Positions 11,256-64,000 of a stretch of 64,000 nt of DNA are shown one piece after another. Under the pieces are notes generated by a model, which was not told where the DNA came from, did no database searches, and worked only from the letters and a program-made list of their open reading frames with translations. The DNA is from Eledone cirrhosa. Lineage: Eukaryota. Position numbers and translations under genes: made by a program. The stretch lies in NCBI GenBank assembly GCA_964016885.1, contig OZ024755.1, positions 30,256,001-30,320,000 of the forward strand. The letters run 5' to 3'. Position 1 is the stretch's first letter. Each line of letters starts with the position of its first letter.

Positions 11256-11291
11256 TCTTCTGATGAAAGACTAGCGTCCGAAACGTTAAGA
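11256..11291 (+). ncRNA. Minimal (dimer-type) hammerhead motif
   Basis: TCTT-CTGATGA-AA GAC TAGC GTC C-GAAAC GTT^AAGA; loopless palindromic stem III as in PLE minimal HHRs. Confidence 0.6.
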
Positions 11292-11874: not shown

Positions 11875-12947
11875 AGTCAGACAGTTCGGGTGTGGCACTA
11901 ACACCTGCTTCCTGAAGCTCCCACACTTCAGTGACGAAATAACAACAGCCATCCGCAGAGCTTATCAGACGAGAGAGACTAGATATCCAACTAGCCCACT
12001 CAGGACCTTCTCTACGCGGACAGCTAACCAAAAGACACTCCACCAGACATGACAACTGCTGCAAGCTAGCCAACTGCCCCATCAACGACACAGACCTATG
12101 CCACCAGGCTTACGTCGTATACAGACTAGAGTGCGACAAATGCAGCAACTTCTACGTAGGTAGCACCAGCAGACCACTTCACATAAGAATAAAAGAACAC
12201 CTCAATACTAACGCTTCCTCATTTAAGAAACACCGAGTGAAATGCAAAAACACCGACAAAAACATAACAGTTAGGATAGAAACTAAGGAAAGAAACCTCG
12301 GCAATCTTAGAATTAAGGAAGCACTGATTATAGACAAAACGCAACCACCAATCAATAATAGACTAGAACTGAACACCCAATTTTTAACATGATAGAGTAC
12401 CTAGCCCCACACTCACACCCACCCTCTCTCACACACACACACACGCTTACACCTCCACTTATTCTCTCTCACACACACATACACATACAAAGACCAGTCT
12501 TAACATGATAGAGCATCTAGCCCCCACATTTACATATAGACATATCTTCTCACACTCACACACACACATATACTTACGCCTTCACGTATTCTCCCACACA
12601 CTTAAACATACATGTACAAAACCCCTTTTAAAGGGAGACAACTCTTTATCCACCTAACCTTCACTCTTTGACATTAGACATAGAATGGAATCTCTATACC
12701 ATTTCCTGTCAGCATGACTTGGCAAGCTGATTAGAACACTGGATTAACCCCTTTACTTCCCTCCGAAGAAGAGATATTATCTCGAAAATTAAGGATATTT
12801 AAATAAATTTAAGGTAAAAGACTAATTGTCAACAATATCTTTTGCATTTGCCTTTATATTCTATATCCATACCTGCATTGTCTTGGCCTTCCAACTCCAA
12901 ACGTGTATATCTCATTACGCAATGCTTCAAGTAAACTACAACTTCCT

Positions 12948-25016: not shown

Positions 25017-26027
25017 CAACCCTGATGGTATCCAATGATGTTGACTTGTTCTTCTTTTTGGTAAATATCATCTCGGTTAAGAGAGTGGGACTGGTTTTGT
25101 GCAGTGCCTTTGCTCACTATAAAAGCTTCACGGCACAGGCATTGCTTTATATCTGGAGATCTCTCTGCACTTGTCGTCGCGTGGTGCCATGGGCCCAGCG
25201 CTGTGTGTCAATAATTGTCACAAATGTAGTGTTTGTACCAGAGTTTTCAAGTCGCTGACTGGACTAAAAGGTCACACTCGTTCAGCGCATCGGTAGGGGT
25301 TCTCCTACATGGATATAAAGTAGTGGCCGTACTCGAAAACGAATTGGCAGCCACCATGTATGTATGTATGTATGTATGTATGTATGTATGTATGTATGTA
25401 TGTATGTATGTATGTATGTATGTATGTATGCACAGGCATTGCTTTATATCTGAAGATCTCTCTGCACTTGTCGTCACATGGTACCATGGGCCCAGCACTA
25501 TGTGTCAGTAATTGTCACAAGTGTAGTGTTTGTACCAGAGTTTTCAAGTCGCTGGCTGGACTAAAAGGTCACACTCGTTCAGCGCATCGGTAGGGGTTCT
25601 CCTACATGGATATAAAGTAGTGGCCGTACTCGAAAACGAGTTGGCAGCCACCATGTATGTATGTATGTATGTATGTATGTATGTATGTATGTATGTATGT
25701 ATGTATGTATGTATGTATGTATGTATGTATGTATGTATGTATGTATGTATGCACAGGCATTGCTTTATATCTGAAGATCTCTCTGCACTTGTCGTCACAT
25801 GGTACCATGGGCCCAGCACTATGTGTCAGTAATTGTCACAAGTGTAGTGTTTGTACCAGAGTTTTCAAGTCGCTGGCTGGACTAAAAATCACACTCGTTC
25901 AGCGCATCGGTAGGGGTTCTCCTACATGCATATAAAGTAGTGGCCGTACTCGAAAACGAGTTGGCAGCCACCATGTATGTATGTATGTATGTATGTATGT
26001 ATGTATGTATGTATGTATGTATGTATG

Positions 26028-26056
<29 letters not shown>
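25017..26056 (+). mobile_element. Same retroposon family, followed by two further tandem 3' ends, each with a (TATG)n tail
   Basis: Units at about 25017-25356, 25431-25653 and 25751-25973; HKCSVCTRVFKSLAGLKGHTRSAHR. Confidence 0.75.
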
Positions 26057-26060
<4 letters not shown>

Positions 26061-26581
26061 GCTTTTATGTCTGTATGTGCGTGTACTATGTGTGTATATG
26101 TTTGTAGTCGCTGCGTTTGTAAATTAGATCTTGTTTTTTATTGAATCAAATTTTCTATGGCAATTCTCAATTCGAGGATCAAGGCTATAAAGAGAATATT
26201 TACGTTGAACGTTCGGAAAATATGTACTGGATTATATTGAATATAATTTTAGCATGAGAATATAATTGATATCACCATCCTATAAAAATGAAACTATAAT
26301 AACAAAACTGCTCATTTAATATATATGTATGTATGTATATATATATCAATATATATATATGTAAGTATGCATGTATACGTACATACATATATGTATACAG
26401 ACGTACAGTAGCATGCACATATATATATATATATACATATATACATACATATGCATACAGGTACACATACATATATGCACGTATCAGTTTAGCGGCGCTA
26501 ACGTCGCTTTGTTCGTTTGTAAACAAACTGAACAGCCTGAATTTATGCCATACGGTGTTAAGGCAACCACGTCACCTTTTT

Positions 26582-26668
26582 GTTCAACACTGACACAGGA
26601 ACGATGTACTAGTTTCAAGCTTGTTAGCTATCATCAGCACCGTTTACCCATCTGCCAGATAGTTGAAC
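26582..26668 (-). ncRNA. Hammerhead ribozyme, inverted copy in array A
   Basis: Reverse complement of 27263-27349 (TCATCAG at 26631-26637). Confidence 0.88.
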
Positions 26669-27262
26669 GTTCGAAAGTATATACTTTCCTTATGAAAATT
26701 AACGGCTGAGCAGCCTAATTTGCATATTGAGTGAGTTAAATCGGTCAGGCATACCGAAAACGATAAATTGAAACAAAATGAAAACGAAATTTCATTTCTC
26801 ACTCTTAGTATGGCACTTACTTAAATGTAAGTATGCATGCATACGTACATACATATATGTATACAGACGTACAGTAGCATGCACATATATGTATATATAT
26901 ACATATATACATACATATGCATACAGGTACACATACATATATGCACGTATCAGTTTAGCGGCGCTAACGTCGCTTTGTTCGTTTGTAAACAAACTGAACA
27001 GCCTGAATTTATGCCATACGGTGTTAAGGCAACCACGTCACCTTTTTGTTCAACACTGATACGTCTGTATACATATATGTATGTACGTATACATGCATAC
27101 TTACATTTAAGTAAGTGCCATACTAAGAGTGAGAAATGAAATTTCGTTTTCATTTTGTTTCAATTTATCGTTTTCGGTATGCCTGACCGATTTAACTCAC
27201 TCAATATGCAAATTAGGCTGCTCAGCCGTTAATTTTCATAAGGAAAGTATATACTTTCGAAC

Positions 27263-27349
27263 GTTCAACTATCTGGCAGATGGGTAAACGGTGCTGATGA
27301 TAGCTAACAAGCTTGAAACTAGTACATCGTTCCTGTGTCAGTGTTGAAC
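27263..27349 (+). ncRNA. Type I hammerhead ribozyme of array A (plus-strand cores at 27294, 27760, 28226, 28692, 29158, 29624, 30090, 30556)
   Basis: AACGGTG-CTGATGA-T AGCT AACA AGCT T-GAAA-C TA-GTA^CATCGTT; stem I extends via GG/CC past a TA bulge, CTGGCA/TGTCAG and GTTCAAC/GTTGAAC; predicted cut after 27324. Confidence 0.88.
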
Positions 27350-30300
27350 AAAAAGGTGACGTGGTTGCCTTAACACCGTATGGCATAAATTCAGGCTGTT
27401 CAGTTTGTTTACAAACGAACAAAGCGACGTTAGCGCCGCTAAACTGATACGTGCATATATGTATGTGTACCTGTATGCATATGTATGTATATATGTATAT
27501 ATATATATATATGTGCATGCTACTGTACGTCTGTATACATATATGTATGTACGTATACATGCATACTTACATTTAAGTAAGTGCCATACTAAGAGTGAGA
27601 AATGAAATTTCGTTTTCATTTTGTTTCAATTTATCGTTTTCGGTATGCCTGACCGATTTAACTCACTCAATATGCAAATTAGGCTGCTCAGCCGTTAATT
27701 TTCATAAGGAAAGTATATACTTTCGAACGTTCAACTATCTGGCAGATGGGTAAACGGTGCTGATGATAGCTAACAAGCTTGAAACTAGTACATCGTTCCT
27801 GTGTCAGTGTTGAACAAAAAGGTGACGTGGTTGCCTTAACACCGTATGGCATAAATTCAGGCTGTTCAGTTTGTTTACAAACGAACAAAGCGACGTTAGC
27901 GCCGCTAAACTGATACGTGCATATATGTATGTGTACCTGTATGCATATGTATGTATATATGTATATATATATATATATGTGCATGCTACTGTACGTCTGT
28001 ATACATATATGTATGTACGTATACATGCATACTTACATTTAAGTAAGTGCCATACTAAGAGTGAGAAATGAAATTTCGTTTTCATTTTGTTTCAATTTAT
28101 CGTTTTCGGTATGCCTGACCGATTTAACTCACTCAATATGCAAATTAGGCTGCTCAGCCGTTAATTTTCATAAGGAAAGTATATACTTTCGAACGTTCAA
28201 CTATCTGGCAGATGGGTAAACGGTGCTGATGATAGCTAACAAGCTTGAAACTAGTACATCGTTCCTGTGTCAGTGTTGAACAAAAAGGTGACGTGGTTGC
28301 CTTAACACCGTATGGCATAAATTCAGGCTGTTCAGTTTGTTTACAAACGAACAAAGCGACGTTAGCGCCGCTAAACTGATACGTGCATATATGTATGTGT
28401 ACCTGTATGCATATGTATGTATATATGTATATATATATATATATGTGCATGCTACTGTACGTCTGTATACATATATGTATGTACGTATACATGCATACTT
28501 ACATTTAAGTAAGTGCCATACTAAGAGTGAGAAATGAAATTTCGTTTTCATTTTGTTTCAATTTATCGTTTTCGGTATGCCTGACCGATTTAACTCACTC
28601 AATATGCAAATTAGGCTGCTCAGCCGTTAATTTTCATAAGGAAAGTATATACTTTCGAACGTTCAACTATCTGGCAGATGGGTAAACGGTGCTGATGATA
28701 GCTAACAAGCTTGAAACTAGTACATCGTTCCTGTGTCAGTGTTGAACAAAAAGGTGACGTGGTTGCCTTAACACCGTATGGCATAAATTCAGGCTGTTCA
28801 GTTTGTTTACAAACGAACAAAGCGACGTTAGCGCCGCTAAACTGATACGTGCATATATGTATGTGTACCTGTATGCATATGTATGTATATATGTATATAT
28901 ATATATATATGTGCATGCTACTGTACGTCTGTATACATATATGTATGTACGTATACATGCATACTTACATTTAAGTAAGTGCCATACTAAGAGTGAGAAA
29001 TGAAATTTCGTTTTCATTTTGTTTCAATTTATCGTTTTCGGTATGCCTGACCGATTTAACTCACTCAATATGCAAATTAGGCTGCTCAGCCGTTAATTTT
29101 CATAAGGAAAGTATATACTTTCGAACGTTCAACTATCTGGCAGATGGGTAAACGGTGCTGATGATAGCTAACAAGCTTGAAACTAGTACATCGTTCCTGT
29201 GTCAGTGTTGAACAAAAAGGTGACGTGGTTGCCTTAACACCGTATGGCATAAATTCAGGCTGTTCAGTTTGTTTACAAACGAACAAAGCGACGTTAGCGC
29301 CGCTAAACTGATACGTGCATATATGTATGTGTACCTGTATGCATATGTATGTATATATGTATATATATATATATATGTGCATGCTACTGTACGTCTGTAT
29401 ACATATATGTATGTACGTATACATGCATACTTACATTTAAGTAAGTGCCATACTAAGAGTGAGAAATGAAATTTCGTTTTCATTTTGTTTCAATTTATCG
29501 TTTTCGGTATGCCTGACCGATTTAACTCACTCAATATGCAAATTAGGCTGCTCAGCCGTTAATTTTCATAAGGAAAGTATATACTTTCGAACGTTCAACT
29601 ATCTGGCAGATGGGTAAACGGTGCTGATGATAGCTAACAAGCTTGAAACTAGTACATCGTTCCTGTGTCAGTGTTGAACAAAAAGGTGACGTGGTTGCCT
29701 TAACACCGTATGGCATAAATTCAGGCTGTTCAGTTTGTTTACAAACGAACAAAGCGACGTTAGCGCCGCTAAACTGATACGTGCATATATGTATGTGTAC
29801 CTGTATGCATATGTATGTATATATGTATATATATATATATATGTGCATGCTACTGTACGTCTGTATACATATATGTATGTACGTATACATGCATACTTAC
29901 ATTTAAGTAAGTGCCATACTAAGAGTGAGAAATGAAATTTCGTTTTCATTTTGTTTCAATTTATCGTTTTCGGTATGCCTGACCGATTTAACTCACTCAA
30001 TATGCAAATTAGGCTGCTCAGCCGTTAATTTTCATAAGGAAAGTATATACTTTCGAACGTTCAACTATCTGGCAGATGGGTAAACGGTGCTGATGATAGC
30101 TAACAAGCTTGAAACTAGTACATCGTTCCTGTGTCAGTGTTGAACAAAAAGGTGACGTGGTTGCCTTAACACCGTATGGCATAAATTCAGGCTGTTCAGT
30201 TTGTTTACAAACGAACAAAGCGACGTTAGCGCCGCTAAACTGATACGTGCATATATGTATGTGTACCTGTATGCATATGTATGTATATATGTATATATAT

Positions 30301-30888
30301 ATATATATGTGCATGCTACTGTACGTCTGTATACATATATGTATGTACGTATACATGCATACTTACATTTAAGTAAGTGCCATACTAAGAGTGAGAAATG
30401 AAATTTCGTTTTCATTTTGTTTCAATTTATCGTTTTCGGTATGCCTGACCGATTTAACTCACTCAATATGCAAATTAGGCTGCTCAGCCGTTAATTTTCA
30501 TAAGGAAAGTATATACTTTCGAACGTTCAACTATCTGGCAGATGGGTAAACGGTGCTGATGATAGCTAACAAGCTTGAAACTAGTACATCGTTCCTGTGT
30601 CAGTGTTGAACAAAAAGGTGACGTGGTTGCCTTAACACCGTATGGCATAAATTCAGGCTGTTCAGTTTGTTTACAAACGAACAAAGCGACGTTAGCGCTG
30701 CTAAACTGATACGTGCATATATGTATGTGTACCTGTATGCATATGTATGTATATATGTATATATATATATATATGTGCATGCTACTGTACGTCTGTATAC
30801 ATATATGTATGTACGTATACATGCATACTTACATTTAAGTAAGTGCCATACTAAGAGTGAGAAATGAAATTTCGTTTTCATTTTGTTT

Positions 30889-30979
<91 letters not shown>

Positions 30980-30995
30980 TGTATATATGTATATA

Positions 30996-31081
<86 letters not shown>

Positions 31082-32470: not shown

Positions 32471-32792
32471 GGGCGATGGATTGGCAGTATCGGTAGAGGG
32501 TCGGACGCCATGCTTTGACGCATAGAGTTACGGCCCTTGTCATTCTGAGTTCAAATCCCGCCGAGGTTAACTTTGCCTTTCATGCTTACGGGGTCGATAA
32601 AATAAAGTACCAGTAATACACTGGGTAATTGCTGGCCTTGTGCCAAAAGTAGAAACAATTATTTACTCAAAGTAAATCAAAGTTCAAATCCCGCCGAGGT
32701 TAACTTTGCCTTTCATGCTTACGGGGTCGATAAAATAAAGTACCAGTAATGTACTGGGTATTTGCTGGGTTTGTGCCAAAAGTAGAAACAAT
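32471..32792 (+). mobile_element. Full SINE plus 5'-truncated SINE in tandem
   Basis: TTATTTACTCAAAGTAA occurs before, between and after the two copies. Confidence 0.85.
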
Positions 32793-34566
32793 TATTTACT
32801 CAAAGTAATCCAACTTATTTTACTAACGGGATAAACAAATATATTTAGGACACAGTCCCGCATTCATCCCTTTATTATTAAGATATACATAAAACAGAGT
32901 CCTGTCTTGCAACAGAATGTACTTCTCTAAAGCATCTATGAACCAAATGCTGGTGTTTAACGGAACCGTGCTGTTGCTTGACTCTACGTTATCCCTGATA
33001 CAGCATTTCTATAGTAAAAGGGATGGCAACCATAATCAACTTGTTAATTCTTCTTTCATACATAGTGTATGTTGAACTACATTATTAAATGTGTCATTGA
33101 TTTTCTAAAACAGCAAAATCAAACTCGAGGAACATTTGATCCAGATTTCCAGTGGCTCCTTCTGTCACTGGCACTATAATTGTTTCTACTTTTGGCACAA
33201 GGCCAGCAATTACCCAGTACATTACTGGTACTTTACTTTATCGACCCCCTAAGCATGAAAGGCAAAGTTAACCTCGGCGGGATTTGAACTCAGAACGTAA
33301 AGAGACGTAACTATGCTGGAAAGCATGTCCGACCCTCTACCGATACTGCCAATCCACCGCCCTTGTCACTGGCACTATAATAATACATATTATACGAGTA
33401 CTGGAGCTTTAAATAAGTTTATTCAAGTTGATGGTCACTTATGTAAGGAACGGAGAGTTAGATGTAAAGCGATAAGTGAAAACTATTACTCATAGTAACG
33501 TTGCTTTTTATTTTCCTATAAATATGGCAGAAAATTGCGAACATCATTTTTCTATAGGCAGAAGTTAACCCAGAACGCAAGGAACCGGAATCTGTGTTAT
33601 AATGCTTTTCATCAGACGATCTAACGCTTCTGACAATTCGCTGACTAATCTGTATTTAACCTTATTATTTAACACCAATATGACTTTTATGGCGGAACTA
33701 TAGCATGACGTAATTTGTTGAAGTTATTTTTATTATATTCTCACAAAGCATATTTGAGTTTATATTCTCACAAAGCATATTCGAGTCTACTTTGTTTGTA
33801 TTTATTACGTAGACGTCTACTTATCTATTGCTAATCATAGGAAGGACAGCATACAAGAATCATTTAATGTACATTTTGTTTTATAAATGATTATATACGA
33901 ATCTTTTAACATAAAATTGGCAAAAGATTTATATGATGTTGGTATTTTATGAGTTTCCAAGTTTATAAAGTAATAAAATATTATTCTTACAGCTTTGTAA
34001 TTAATAATCATTCACGTTTACAGACATTGCAACACCTCTAGGTATGTTAGACTTTGATGCAGAAAATAACGTTTCTTATATATATCAGAACCATAATATA
34101 CTAAATGATTTCTGTAAAGACTTCATAGTTGACTCTTGCCCAATTTGCTTTAATAATATGAATTAATTTTCAGATATTAATTGTTAATTTCTTGAAATTA
34201 TTTCCTCATTTTCTAGAGTCATTAACAATTATCGTTAATTTGTTTTTCTTCCTTCGACAACTAAGAGTGAAATTTCAATTAGTTTTTCAAAAAGGTCAGT
34301 CACCTTTATTTAATAAAACTCATGACATTATCCTAATTTTTAATAATTAAATTATACTAGACAAAGATTATTCGTAACCCTTGTTTTATATGTCAAACGT
34401 GTTCCCAGATCAAAGCAGTTATAGTATAACATAGAAGATAGGTGTCACTGTCAACTGGAGGAAGATCCTCGATACTAATAACAGAAGGACATGTGGAATA
34501 CGTTTAATCCTCCAAGTCAAGCACACTCTACTCTCAAACAATCCCATATTATTTCTTGTCACCTTT

Positions 34567-48723: not shown

Positions 48724-48776
48724 CTGCCTGATGAGGCCACAGCCAATAATGGCTGTCATTGAAATATGTATAGCAG
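48724..48776 (+). ncRNA. Type I hammerhead motif
   Basis: CTGC-CTGATGA-..ACAGCCA ATAA TGGCTGT..-GAAA TA TG T-ATA^GCAG. Confidence 0.65.
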
Positions 48777-58708: not shown

Positions 58709-58749
<41 letters not shown>

Positions 58750-58944
58750 GTTAAAGATGTACATCCATATATGTATACTGAAATACTAGTATGTATATGA
58801 ATACACACACGTATACATATGTAGATGTACCAAGTTTTTTCACTGGTCACTTTACTGTGAGTGGCCAGCTATTCTGTATGTAAACACACAGACAAACCGG
58901 TTTTTAGAGTCATACTGGTTTTTGAGGAAACACCTTTCCTCTAT

Positions 58945-59036
58945 TCTCCAGAAAGCCAGACAAGGAATATTGAACTAGTTTCGTTGTTGTTACAACTCAT
59001 CAGCAATATTTACCTATCTTCCGGCCTCTCTAGAGA
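58945..59036 (-). ncRNA. Hammerhead ribozyme in the minus arm of array B (7 copies; TCATCAG at 58997, 59464, 59931, 60398, 60865, 61332, 61799)
   Basis: Reverse complement of 62401-62492. Confidence 0.92.
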
Positions 59037-62000
59037 ATCGTAAAAGCACATATCGTTATATGCTTTTTCTATGAAAATTAGTAGTGGGCAGACTAATTTG
59101 CATAGAGTGTGAGTAAGTACCGGTTCAACGGAGACGATAAAAACAAATAACGAAACGAAATTAAATTTCGTTTCGTTTGTAACTCACTTTTGTATGACTG
59201 ACGCTTAAACAATTAAGTTAAAGATGTACATCCATATATGTATACTGAAATACTAGTATGTATATGAATACACACACGTATACATATGTAGATGTACCAA
59301 GTTTTTTCACTGGTCACTTTACTGTGAGTGGCCAGCTATTCTGTATGTAAACACACAGACAAACCGGTTTTTAGAGTCATACTGGTTTTTGAGGAAACAC
59401 CTTTCCTCTATTCTCCAGAAAGCCAGACAAGGAATATTGAACTAGTTTCGTTGTTGTTACAACTCATCAGCAATATTTACCTATCTTCCGGCCTCTCTAG
59501 AGAATCGTAAAAGCACATATCGTTATATGCTTTTTCTATGAAAATTAGTAGTGGGCAGACTAATTTGCATAGAGTGTGAGTAAGTACCGGTTCAACGGAG
59601 ACGATAAAAACAAATAACGAAACGAAATTAAATTTCGTTTCGTTTGTAACTCACTTTTGTATGACTGACGCTTAAACAATTAAGTTAAAGATGTACATCC
59701 ATATATGTATACTGAAATACTAGTATGTATATGAATACACACACGTATACATATGTAGATGTACCAAGTTTTTTCACTGGTCACTTTACTGTGAGTGGCC
59801 AGCTATTCTGTATGTAAACACACAGACAAACCGGTTTTTAGAGTCATACTGGTTTTTGAGGAAACACCTTTCCTCTATTCTCCAGAAAGCCAGACAAGGA
59901 ATATTGAACTAGTTTCGTTGTTGTTACAACTCATCAGCAATATTTACCTATCTTCCGGCCTCTCTAGAGAATCGTAAAAGCACATATCGTTATATGCTTT
60001 TTCTATGAAAATTAGTAGTGGGCAGACTAATTTGCATAGAGTGTGAGTAAGTACCGGTTCAACGGAGACGATAAAAACAAATAACGAAACGAAATTAAAT
60101 TTCGTTTCGTTTGTAACTCACTTTTGTATGACTGACGCTTAAACAATTAAGTTAAAGATGTACATCCATATATGTATACTGAAATACTAGTATGTATATG
60201 AATACACACACGTATACATATGTAGATGTACCAAGTTTTTTCACTGGTCACTTTACTGTGAGTGGCCAGCTATTCTGTATGTAAACACACAGACAAACCG
60301 GTTTTTAGAGTCATACTGGTTTTTGAGGAAACACCTTTCCTCTATTCTCCAGAAAGCCAGACAAGGAATATTGAACTAGTTTCGTTGTTGTTACAACTCA
60401 TCAGCAATATTTACCTATCTTCCGGCCTCTCTAGAGAATCGTAAAAGCACATATCGTTATATGCTTTTTCTATGAAAATTAGTAGTGGGCAGACTAATTT
60501 GCATAGAGTGTGAGTAAGTACCGGTTCAACGGAGACGATAAAAACAAATAACGAAACGAAATTAAATTTCGTTTCGTTTGTAACTCACTTTTGTATGACT
60601 GACGCTTAAACAATTAAGTTAAAGATGTACATCCATATATGTATACTGAAATACTAGTATGTATATGAATACACACACGTATACATATGTAGATGTACCA
60701 AGTTTTTTCACTGGTCACTTTACTGTGAGTGGCCAGCTATTCTGTATGTAAACACACAGACAAACCGGTTTTTAGAGTCATACTGGTTTTTGAGGAAACA
60801 CCTTTCCTCTATTCTCCAGAAAGCCAGACAAGGAATATTGAACTAGTTTCGTTGTTGTTACAACTCATCAGCAATATTTACCTATCTTCCGGCCTCTCTA
60901 GAGAATCGTAAAAGCACATATCGTTATATGCTTTTTCTATGAAAATTAGTAGTGGGCAGACTAATTTGCATAGAGTGTGAGTAAGTACCGGTTCAACGGA
61001 GACGATAAAAACAAATAACGAAACGAAATTAAATTTCGTTTCGTTTGTAACTCACTTTTGTATGACTGACGCTTAAACAATTAAGTTAAAGATGTACATC
61101 CATATATGTATACTGAAATACTAGTATGTATATGAATACACACACGTATACATATGTAGATGTACCAAGTTTTTTCACTGGTCACTTTACTGTGAGTGGC
61201 CAGCTATTCTGTATGTAAACACACAGACAAACCGGTTTTTAGAGTCATACTGGTTTTTGAGGAAACACCTTTCCTCTATTCTCCAGAAAGCCAGACAAGG
61301 AATATTGAACTAGTTTCGTTGTTGTTACAACTCATCAGCAATATTTACCTATCTTCCGGCCTCTCTAGAGAATCGTAAAAGCACATATCGTTATATGCTT
61401 TTTCTATGAAAATTAGTAGTGGGCAGACTAATTTGCATAGAGTGTGAGTAAGTACCGGTTCAACGGAGACGATAAAAACAAATAACGAAACGAAATTAAA
61501 TTTCGTTTCGTTTGTAACTCACTTTTGTATGACTGACGCTTAAACAATTAAGTTAAAGATGTACATCCATATATGTATACTGAAATACTAGTATGTATAT
61601 GAATACACACACGTATACATATGTAGATGTACCAAGTTTTTTCACTGGTCACTTTACTGTGAGTGGCCAGCTATTCTGTATGTAAACACACAGACAAACC
61701 GGTTTTTAGAGTCATACTGGTTTTTGAGGAAACACCTTTCCTCTATTCTCCAGAAAGCCAGACAAGGAATATTGAACTAGTTTCGTTGTTGTTACAACTC
61801 ATCAGCAATATTTACCTATCTTCCGGCCTCTCTAGAGGATCGTAAAAGCACATATCGTTATATGCTTTTTCTATGAAAATTAGTAGTGGGCAGACTAATT
61901 TGCATAGAGTGTGAGTAAGTACCGGTTCAACGGAGACGATAAAAACAAATAACGAAACGAAATTAAATTTCGTTTCGTTTGTAACTCACTTTTGTATGAC

Positions 62001-62400
62001 TGACGCTTGTCTGGCTTTCTGGAGAATAGAGGAAAGGTGTTTCCTCAAAAACCAGTATGACTCTAAAAACCGGTTTGTCTGTGTGTTTACATACAGAATA
62101 GCTGGCCACTCACAGTAAAGTGACCAGTGAAAAAACTTGGTACATCTACATATGTATACGTGTGTGTATTCATATACATACTAGTATTTCAGTATACATA
62201 TATGGATGTACATCTTTAACTTAATTGTTTAAGCGTCAGTCATACAAAAGTGAGTTACAAACGAAACGAAATTTAATTTCGTTTCGTTATTTGTTTTTAT
62301 CGTCTCCGTTGAACCGGTACTTACTCACACTCTATGCAAATTAGTCTGCCCACTACTAATTTTCATAGAAAAAGCATATAACGATATGTGCTTTTACGAT

Positions 62401-62492
62401 TCTCTAGAGAGGCCGGAAGATAGGTAAATATTGCTGATGAGTTGTAACAACAACGAAACTAGTTCAATATTCCTTGTCTGGCTTTCTGGAGA
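62401..62492 (+). ncRNA. Type I hammerhead ribozyme of array B (plus-strand cores at 62434, 62901, 63368, 63835)
   Basis: AATATTG-CTGATGA-GTTGT AACA ACAAC-GAAA-C TA-GTT^CAATATT; stem I extends AGG/CCT past a TA bulge and TCTCTAGAGAGGCCGGA/TCTGGCTTTCTGGAGA; predicted cut after 62464. Confidence 0.92.
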
Positions 62493-64000
62493 ATAGAGGA
62501 AAGGTGTTTCCTCAAAAACCAGTATGACTCTAAAAACCGGTTTGTCTGTGTGTTTACATACAGAATAGCTGGCCACTCACAGTAAAGTGACCAGTGAAAA
62601 AACTTGGTACATCTACATATGTATACGTGTGTGTATTCATATACATACTAGTATTTCAGTATACATATATGGATGTACATCTTTAACTTAATTGTTTAAG
62701 CGTCAGTCATACAAAAGTGAGTTACAAACGAAACGAAATTTAATTTCGTTTCGTTATTTGTTTTTATCGTCTCCGTTGAACCGGTACTTACTCACACTCT
62801 ATGCAAATTAGTCTGCCCACTACTAATTTTCATAGAAAAAGCATATAACGATATGTGCTTTTACGATTCTCTAGAGAGGCCGGAAGATAGGTAAATATTG
62901 CTGATGAGTTGTAACAACAACGAAACTAGTTCAATATTCCTTGTCTGGCTTTCTGGAGAATAGAGGAAAGGTGTTTCCTCAAAAACCAGTATGACTCTAA
63001 AAACCGGTTTGTCTGTGTGTTTACATACAGAATAGCTGGCCACTCACAGTAAAGTGACCAGTGAAAAAACTTGGTACATCTACATATGTATACGTGTGTG
63101 TATTCATATACATACTAGTATTTCAGTATACATATATGGATGTACATCTTTAACTTAATTGTTTAAGCGTCAGTCATACAAAAGTGAGTTACAAACGAAA
63201 CGAAATTTAATTTCGTTTCGTTATTTGTTTTTATCGTCTCCGTTGAACCGGTACTTACTCACACTCTATGCAAATTAGTCTGCCCACTACTAATTTTCAT
63301 AGAAAAAGCATATAACGATATGTGCTTTTACGATTCTCTAGAGAGGCCGGAAGATAGGTAAATATTGCTGATGAGTTGTAACAACAACGAAACTAGTTCA
63401 ATATTCCTTGTCTGGCTTTCTGGAGAATAGAGGAAAGGTGTTTCCTCAAAAACCAGTATGACTCTAAAAACCGGTTTGTCTGTGTGTTTACATACAGAAT
63501 AGCTGGCCACTCACAGTAAAGTGACCAGTGAAAAAACTTGGTACATCTACATATGTATACGTGTGTGTATTCATATACATACTAGTATTTCAGTATACAT
63601 ATATGGATGTACATCTTTAACTTAATTGTTTAAGCGTCAGTCATACAAAAGTGAGTTACAAACGAAACGAAATTTAATTTCGTTTCGTTATTTGTTTTTA
63701 TCGTCTCCGTTGAACCGGTACTTACTCACACTCTATGCAAATTAGTCTGCCCACTACTAATTTTCATAGAAAAAGCATATAACGATATGTGCTTTTACGA
63801 TTCTCTAGAGAGGCCGGAAGATAGGTAAATATTGCTGATGAGTTGTAACAACAACGAAACTAGTTCAATATTCCTTGTCTGGCTTTCTGGAGAATAGAGG
63901 AAAGGTGTTTCCTCAAAAACCAGTATGACTCTAAAAACCGGTTTGTCTGTGTGTTTACATACAGAATAGCTGGCCACTCACAGTAAAGTGACCAGTGAAA

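Follow-up and report, generated by a model that had tools for sequence, protein, structure and literature searches.

The locus described here raises the question of whether a tandem repeat with one hammerhead ribozyme motif per unit is a plain satellite or the product of a mobile element that passes through RNA. This repeat, array A, occupies positions 26359 to 30896 of a stretch of 64,000 nucleotides of Eledone cirrhosa DNA (GCA_964016885.1, contig OZ024755.1, positions 30,256,001 to 30,320,000), which is called the window and to which coordinates refer unless a locus number (L) is given. As judged from its sequence, array A arose by a single, very recent insertion and belongs to a dispersed, non-coding mobile family. 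Our preferred reading, to which we assign a probability of roughly 0.7, is that of a young two-armed retrozyme insertion, likely written into a (TA)n tract by a Penelope-like enzyme with both strands primed and probably copied from one circular RNA of 466 nt. The parts of this reading differ in strength: mobilization of a retrozyme by Penelope machinery is very probable, the template was likely a circular RNA, and the writing enzyme was probably of Neptune type.

The features on which the following account draws are listed below. Monomer position 1 is the base after the predicted cut, i.e. window position 27325.

26356 to 27059, minus strand: inverted arm of about 1.5 units; outer end at monomer 251 (short end) into (TA)n, inner end at monomer 14, past the predicted cut.
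27060 to 30896, plus strand: forward arm of 8.2 units from monomer 202 to monomer 310 (long end); last element-specific base at about 30892.
27275 to 27342, plus strand: first forward copy of the type I hammerhead motif, with the core from 27294, loop II AACA and the predicted cut after 27324; further copies follow at 466-bp intervals up to the core at 30556.
26589 to 26656, minus strand: ninth hammerhead motif, within the inverted arm.
27206 to 27213, plus strand: octamer ATGCAAAT, one per unit, preceding the core by 88 nt; candidate internal promoter element.
27443 to 27575, plus strand: long AT-rich hairpin (monomer 119-251) with 8 G·U pairs, predicted to be far more stable on the plus strand; it holds the A/G-only fixed variants.
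30838 to 30896, plus strand: 59-nt "tail" (monomer 252-310), at one outer end only.
26319 to 26358: left TA-rich target flank.
30891 to 31041: right (TA)n target flank.
58744 to 64000: array B, a homologous sister family with a 467-bp unit, two-armed.

The forward arm repeats with a period of 466 bp (8.2 copies, 27055 to 30896), and its seven full units, counted from hammerhead to hammerhead, are identical in every letter. Plus-strand cores (CTGATGA...GAAACTAGTA) lie at 27294, 27760, 28226, 28692, 29158, 29624, 30090 and 30556, and a single minus-strand core at 26637 brings the total to nine. Count, period and the cut after 27324 agree with a preliminary description of this DNA, whereas the array is not purely head-to-tail as supposed there: positions 26359 to 27059 are the reverse complement of 1.5 units with two substitutions, and the arms meet at 27059/27060 without filler, at monomer positions 14 and 202. 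Altogether, 3 differences were found across 4.5 kb. Both outer ends pass into (TA)n, the short end on the left and the long end on the right, and a target-site duplication (>4 bp) would have to show within these (TA)n flanks. With about 36% GC over 466 bp, the unit fits the short, GC-poor (<50%) units of retrozymes. The longest ATG frames in array A have 48 amino acids in sense and 112 in antisense direction, the latter running through the TA tract, which bears out the earlier statement that there is no credible open reading frame. Also, array A has no frame with reverse transcriptase (RT) plus GIY-YIG domains, i.e. it is not an autonomous Penelope-like element. Unit lengths at young loci differ by 2-nt steps (466-474), which argues against any coding constraint on the unit.

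The hammerhead of array A keeps all conserved core bases. Stem I has 7 bp with a bulge and a distal extension, stem II has 4 bp on a U·U at 10.1-11.1, and stem III consists of 2 bp around a 2-nt loop, forming the palindrome ACUAGU that would pair between two hammerhead copies. The motif is of type I with an intact core, as described before, but it is not canonical in its U·U and its 2-bp palindromic stem III. Among 250 cores of the examined loci (overlapping loci included), U·U occurred 180 times, G-C 68 times and C-G twice, so that U·U is a family state. An Rfam hammerhead search, suggested earlier as a check, gave no match at gathering score in the window; the one hit was Hammerhead_HH9 with 18.5 bits (E 0.07, gathering score 52). 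Matches to microRNA families were far under their gathering scores and were discarded as TA-hairpin noise. When the bases of the unit were shuffled 20,000 times, 3 of the shuffles gave a relaxed hammerhead pattern. Between subfamilies, covariation is seen in stems I and II: in 16 chosen sequences, 9 of 21 pairs have changes in both partners, and 91.7% are paired, compared to 30-50% (at most 49.7%) in slid controls. As a circle, the plus strand is predicted to fold better than the minus strand (-152 vs -114 kcal/mol).

The octamer ATGCAAAT precedes 392 of 462 cores by no more than 140 nt (a count in which overlapping loci recur), and its distance from the core is fixed, at 88 nt in array A and 100 nt in family B. 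It appears to be a candidate internal promoter element; presumably the same octamer is part of the small nuclear RNA (snRNA)-type promoter of newt satellite 2. That satellite 2 has an snRNA-type promoter is given, as cited in PMC2220036, in the portion of the literature available here. The octamer is also found in a third hammerhead family (L123:1100-1800, L094, L126), together with a TATA-like box.

Copies were counted genome-wide by pattern matching. Exact cores of the array A type number 10,792, U·U-type cores 24,507, and with the sister families, including that of array B, 38,315 cores were found; reversed-pattern controls gave 0. At about 450 bp per core, the family is estimated to make up roughly 0.5% of the 3.0-Gb genome. 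Array B is homologous to the array A unit along its whole length and carries a canonical G10.1-C11.1 hammerhead. It extends from 58744 to 64000 and on into L031:1-2569, has the same two-armed layout with 7 minus-strand and 7 plus-strand cores (3 of them beyond the window), and comprises 12 identical full units over both arms, with ends at about 227 and 303. Other hammerhead families also occur in the window. A divergent pair at 2450 (minus) and 2556 (plus) belongs to a family whose stem II rests on a U·U and whose stem III is long, with two ends about 68 nt apart into (TA)n and many copies in the examined loci; further hammerhead-like motifs at 48728 (plus) and 57760 (minus) belong to other TA-targeted families.

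The outer ends of the family are fixed. The window was surveyed together with 52 stretches around the first 100 cores listed for contig C1; of 77 arms, 55 stopped exactly at monomer 251 or 310 and then passed into TA; these two sites are 59 nt apart. Genome-wide, 2,698 short-end junctions into TA (control 151) and 1,486 long-end junctions (control 0) were counted, a ratio that means little, since the two patterns are unequal in strictness. Pairs of ends within 8 kb numbered 22, of which 16 were divergent, 15 of these combining a short with a long end. For young insertions, 110 stretches were examined, yielding 67 clusters that passed the young-subfamily filter (L203 was left out). Of these, 40 were two-armed: 36 paired a short with a long end, 4 had one end unclassified, and neither long-long nor short-short pairs occurred. 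The other 27 were scored as one-armed, some of them being halves split at a junction gap. Most young loci had been picked via their long end, so what they test is whether the opposite end is a short one.

A similar layout results when 5' inversions of LINE-1 arise by twin priming, in which two opposed complementary DNA (cDNA) arms are joined at microhomology. Array A shares this arrangement of arms but differs by its fixed priming sites, the lack of poly(A) and the lack of a discernible target-site duplication. Twin priming of the LINE-1 type with a duplication of TCAATATATATATA was rejected, because both ends are fixed in the family and what matches on the right is the end of the element itself.

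Penelope-like elements also resemble array A, which shows features expected of Penelope mobilization: 3' ends at fixed sites, a tail on one side only, an inverted 5'-truncated arm and an AT-rich or microsatellite target. As far as the accessible text of the two papers goes, elements of the Neptune clade and Poseidon PAc of Anolis share the inverted truncated arm, the tail at one end and this kind of target (PMC8557442; PMC11167929), together with two internal initiation sites and a hammerhead upstream of the ends. According to the same excerpts, a Penelope-like protein acts on AT-rich DNA in vitro, where it cuts both strands and extends them from two sites internal to the RNA (PMC11167929). 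The family of array A differs from these elements by having no RT/endonuclease frame, a tail of 59 nt instead of 30-40 nt, and identical short units that can number 14 or more. Also, it pairs strictly one short with one long end, whereas in the available account PAc showed no difference between the strands in start site (PMC11167929).

Candidate partners are present in the genome, which holds elements with an RT, a Cx4CxxC motif and, at the C terminus, a GIY-YIG domain; open frames of 938 and 1,096 amino acids occur among them. From the Cx4CxxC motif, we read these elements as Neptune-type. Two such families (L129, L121 and L117; L125 and L114) show two ends, spaced about 50-65 nt, that run into TA. 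One Neptune-type family (L113, L117, L118, L121, L129) carries a terminal repeat with a U·U hammerhead and a palindromic stem III, and the inverted pair L129 combines a short end with a long one. In the family with the 938-amino-acid frame (L114, L115, L119, L123), hammerhead-shaped stems with an altered core lacking CUGANGA lie about 1.1-1.3 kb past the frame. The window itself contains a minimal Penelope-type hammerhead motif at 11260, and a fragment at 11979 to 12389 matches the L124 frame in its C-terminal GIY-YIG part with 93% identity.

Three lines of evidence bear on the template. Firstly, each of the 25 locus-fixed variants whose position is covered in both arms is present in both, and unit-length alleles of 466, 468, 472 or 474 are common to both arms of young insertions. 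Secondly, the fixed variants within the hairpin comprise A/G at 11 sites, T/C at none and one G>C, compared to 6 A/G and 5 T/C outside of it. Changes in the hairpin that are private to single units are 32 A/G and 25 T/C (fixed vs private, Fisher p 0.005), and no A>G excess was seen among unit-private or rare variants. Whether the A/G-only variants stem from ADAR editing or from selection for G·U pairs, they require a plus-strand RNA stage, and their fixation in all units requires a one-unit bottleneck, most simply a circle. Thirdly, 43 loci were inspected for inner ends, 39 of which had a junction; after setting aside 20 of the 78 inner ends because they lay in the hairpin, 16 of the remaining 58 fell 1-35 nt past the predicted cut, where 6.2 were expected (p 3e-4), compared to 4 within the 35 nt before it. 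The inverted arm of array A likewise halts at monomer 14. This clustering suggests that copying ends at a 5' end made by the ribozyme, or stalls at a helix. At 20 junctions, neither end lay in the hairpin; of these, 11 had 1-5 nt of microhomology, 4 were flush and 5 contained filler. Taken together, shared locus-fixed variants, A/G bias and inner-end clustering favor twin target-primed reverse transcription around one RNA circle.

In such an insertion, the plus strand would be transcribed from the internal promoter, and the transcript would cleave itself slowly at GUA, probably as a dimer. Ligation would then give monomer and sometimes dimer circles, and adenosine-to-inosine (A-to-I) editing or G·U-tolerant selection would act within the hairpin. 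Reverse transcription would be primed from both DNA strands of (TA)n and initiate at monomer 310 and 251, with rolling copying often halted when the ribozyme reopens the circle, before the two cDNA ends are joined via short microhomology. A bolder version, which we regard as possible at somewhat below even odds, holds that two Penelope RTs, primed from both strands of a (TA)n break, load 59 nt apart on one ADAR-edited circle, that the weak ribozyme sets the array length, and that about half a percent of the genome was built in this way. A U·U hammerhead of axolotl was cleaved to 22% in 1 h as a monomer and much better as a dimer, according to the available part of PMC7229834.

Several points weigh against the preferred reading. 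All comparison loci lie on contig C1, and the long end served to select most of the young ones. No homology between terminal repeats and the unit was detected by blastn or nhmmer in 50 GIY-YIG loci from 150 scored out of 10,597 candidates. The covariation stems from few related subfamilies, and its count of doubly changed pairs was matched by 120 of 500 shuffles. With its U·U, the ribozyme is weaker in array A, where predicted pair probabilities of stem I in the circle are 0.18-0.80 compared to 0.63-0.94 in family B. The clustering of inner ends could instead reflect stalling at a helix. Consensus polishing may mask differences between units, though other arrays of the same assembly show such differences. 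In the excerpts available, cleavage was found in 1 of 9 frog dimers (10.64898/2026.07.22.740005), and for PAc of Anolis it needed protein and was dispensable for insertion, unprocessed RNA being the main substrate in vitro (PMC11167929).

The latter observation also speaks for the strongest alternative, in which the same Penelope machinery copied a linear multimer that had been transcribed across a homogeneous source array and left uncut, and the hammerhead, inherited from a Penelope terminal repeat, plays a small role. Internal initiation permits fixed ends without a circle, the ribozyme is weak, and some alleles are common to several loci (163 in 24 clusters). Yet many alleles are private to one cluster and nevertheless fixed in all units and both arms, and an A/G bias in fixed but not in unit-private variants needs a one-unit bottleneck. 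Moreover, inner ends gather past the cut site, covariation is seen in the stems, and tens of thousands of copies retain the core. We consider a linear template unlikely.

Improbable is an origin from insertions of one to two units that were later expanded by unequal exchange or slippage like ordinary satellites, a model put forward in 10.64898/2026.07.22.740005 as far as its accessible portion shows. The 31-unit sister array L164-L165 contains higher-order duplication blocks, which also count against the preferred reading and indicate that expansion at the DNA level occurs too. The arrays L035 and L195 alternate two unit types, with a weak period of two also in L166 and no such signal in most arrays; dimer circles would give this pattern, and duplication of dimers would equally do so. 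However, the youngest arrays (L189, L241 and array B) are already long in both arms, array A has accumulated no more than its three differences, and unequal exchange does not homogenize opposed arms.

A plain satellite with a chance motif or a fold-back artefact of assembly is highly improbable: although the units are identical, no Rfam match reaches gathering score and no public contig listed spans the inner junction of array A (the search skips repeats there), the stems covary, the motif is rare in shuffles, the asymmetric fixed ends cannot be produced by fold-back, the junction from long end to TA is present in public contigs at 27168, and the family shows neither the local head-to-tail confinement and arbitrary ends of a plain satellite nor its lack of constraint at the RNA level.

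Array A therefore appears to belong to a known class, the animal non-long-terminal-repeat (non-LTR) retrozymes, with a short unit of low GC content, one type I hammerhead in each, no coding frame and dispersal. In the portions of PMC7229834 and 10.64898/2026.07.22.740005 that were available, the retrozymes of coral, mussel and axolotl and satellite 2 of newt are likewise non-coding tandem units of low GC content with one type I hammerhead each. HHR_Amex2 of axolotl has a U·U at the base of helix II and HHR_Amex1 a short palindromic helix III, both as in array A (PMC7229834). Shared features are also a strongly self-paired monomer and coexisting Penelope-like elements. Not described in these portions are two arms with paired fixed ends, targeting of (TA)n, single-allele arrays and strand-specific variants. 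Published retrozymes have been shown to cleave and to form circles, both of which are predicted for array A, and the molluscan case covered there is mussel. Among the papers listed in literature searches, none concerned a cephalopod retrozyme or such an anatomy; supplementary element lists, Repbase or Dfam may contain members from cephalopods.

With respect to the preliminary description, its central claim of a hammerhead retrozyme instead of a plain satellite is upheld by dispersal, fixed ends, covariation and strand-specific variants, and the circular template gains indirect support. Its view that 466 nt is unusually large does not stand, as the accessible text gives ranges of 150-450 bp (PMC7229834) and 51-972 bp (10.64898/2026.07.22.740005). 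In addition to taking the hammerhead as canonical, it missed the two arms, the copy number and the homology to array B.

Two further repeats are located near array A. At 25133 to 26047, three 297-bp units each contain an (ATGT)n tract; a relative lies between TA tracts in L128, and no hammerhead was seen in them. Two 133-bp units at 32548 to 32808 resemble what we take to be a transfer RNA-derived short interspersed element of octopus genomes.

A link between retrozymes and Penelope-like elements was already proposed (PMC7229834; 10.64898/2026.07.22.740005), and the accessible parts of the published work propose, but do not show, that Penelope-like enzymes reverse-transcribe retrozyme circles in rolling-circle fashion. 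On this unproven mobilization step, array A would add good genomic evidence, as its family supplies exact start sites, a target, a template strand and a probable stop site. Together with the natural pair of U·U and G-C ribozymes in one backbone, these exact sites make the step reconstitutable in vitro. The family explains tens of thousands of repeats in the Eledone cirrhosa genome, and it suggests that RNA editing marks may become fixed in new DNA copies.
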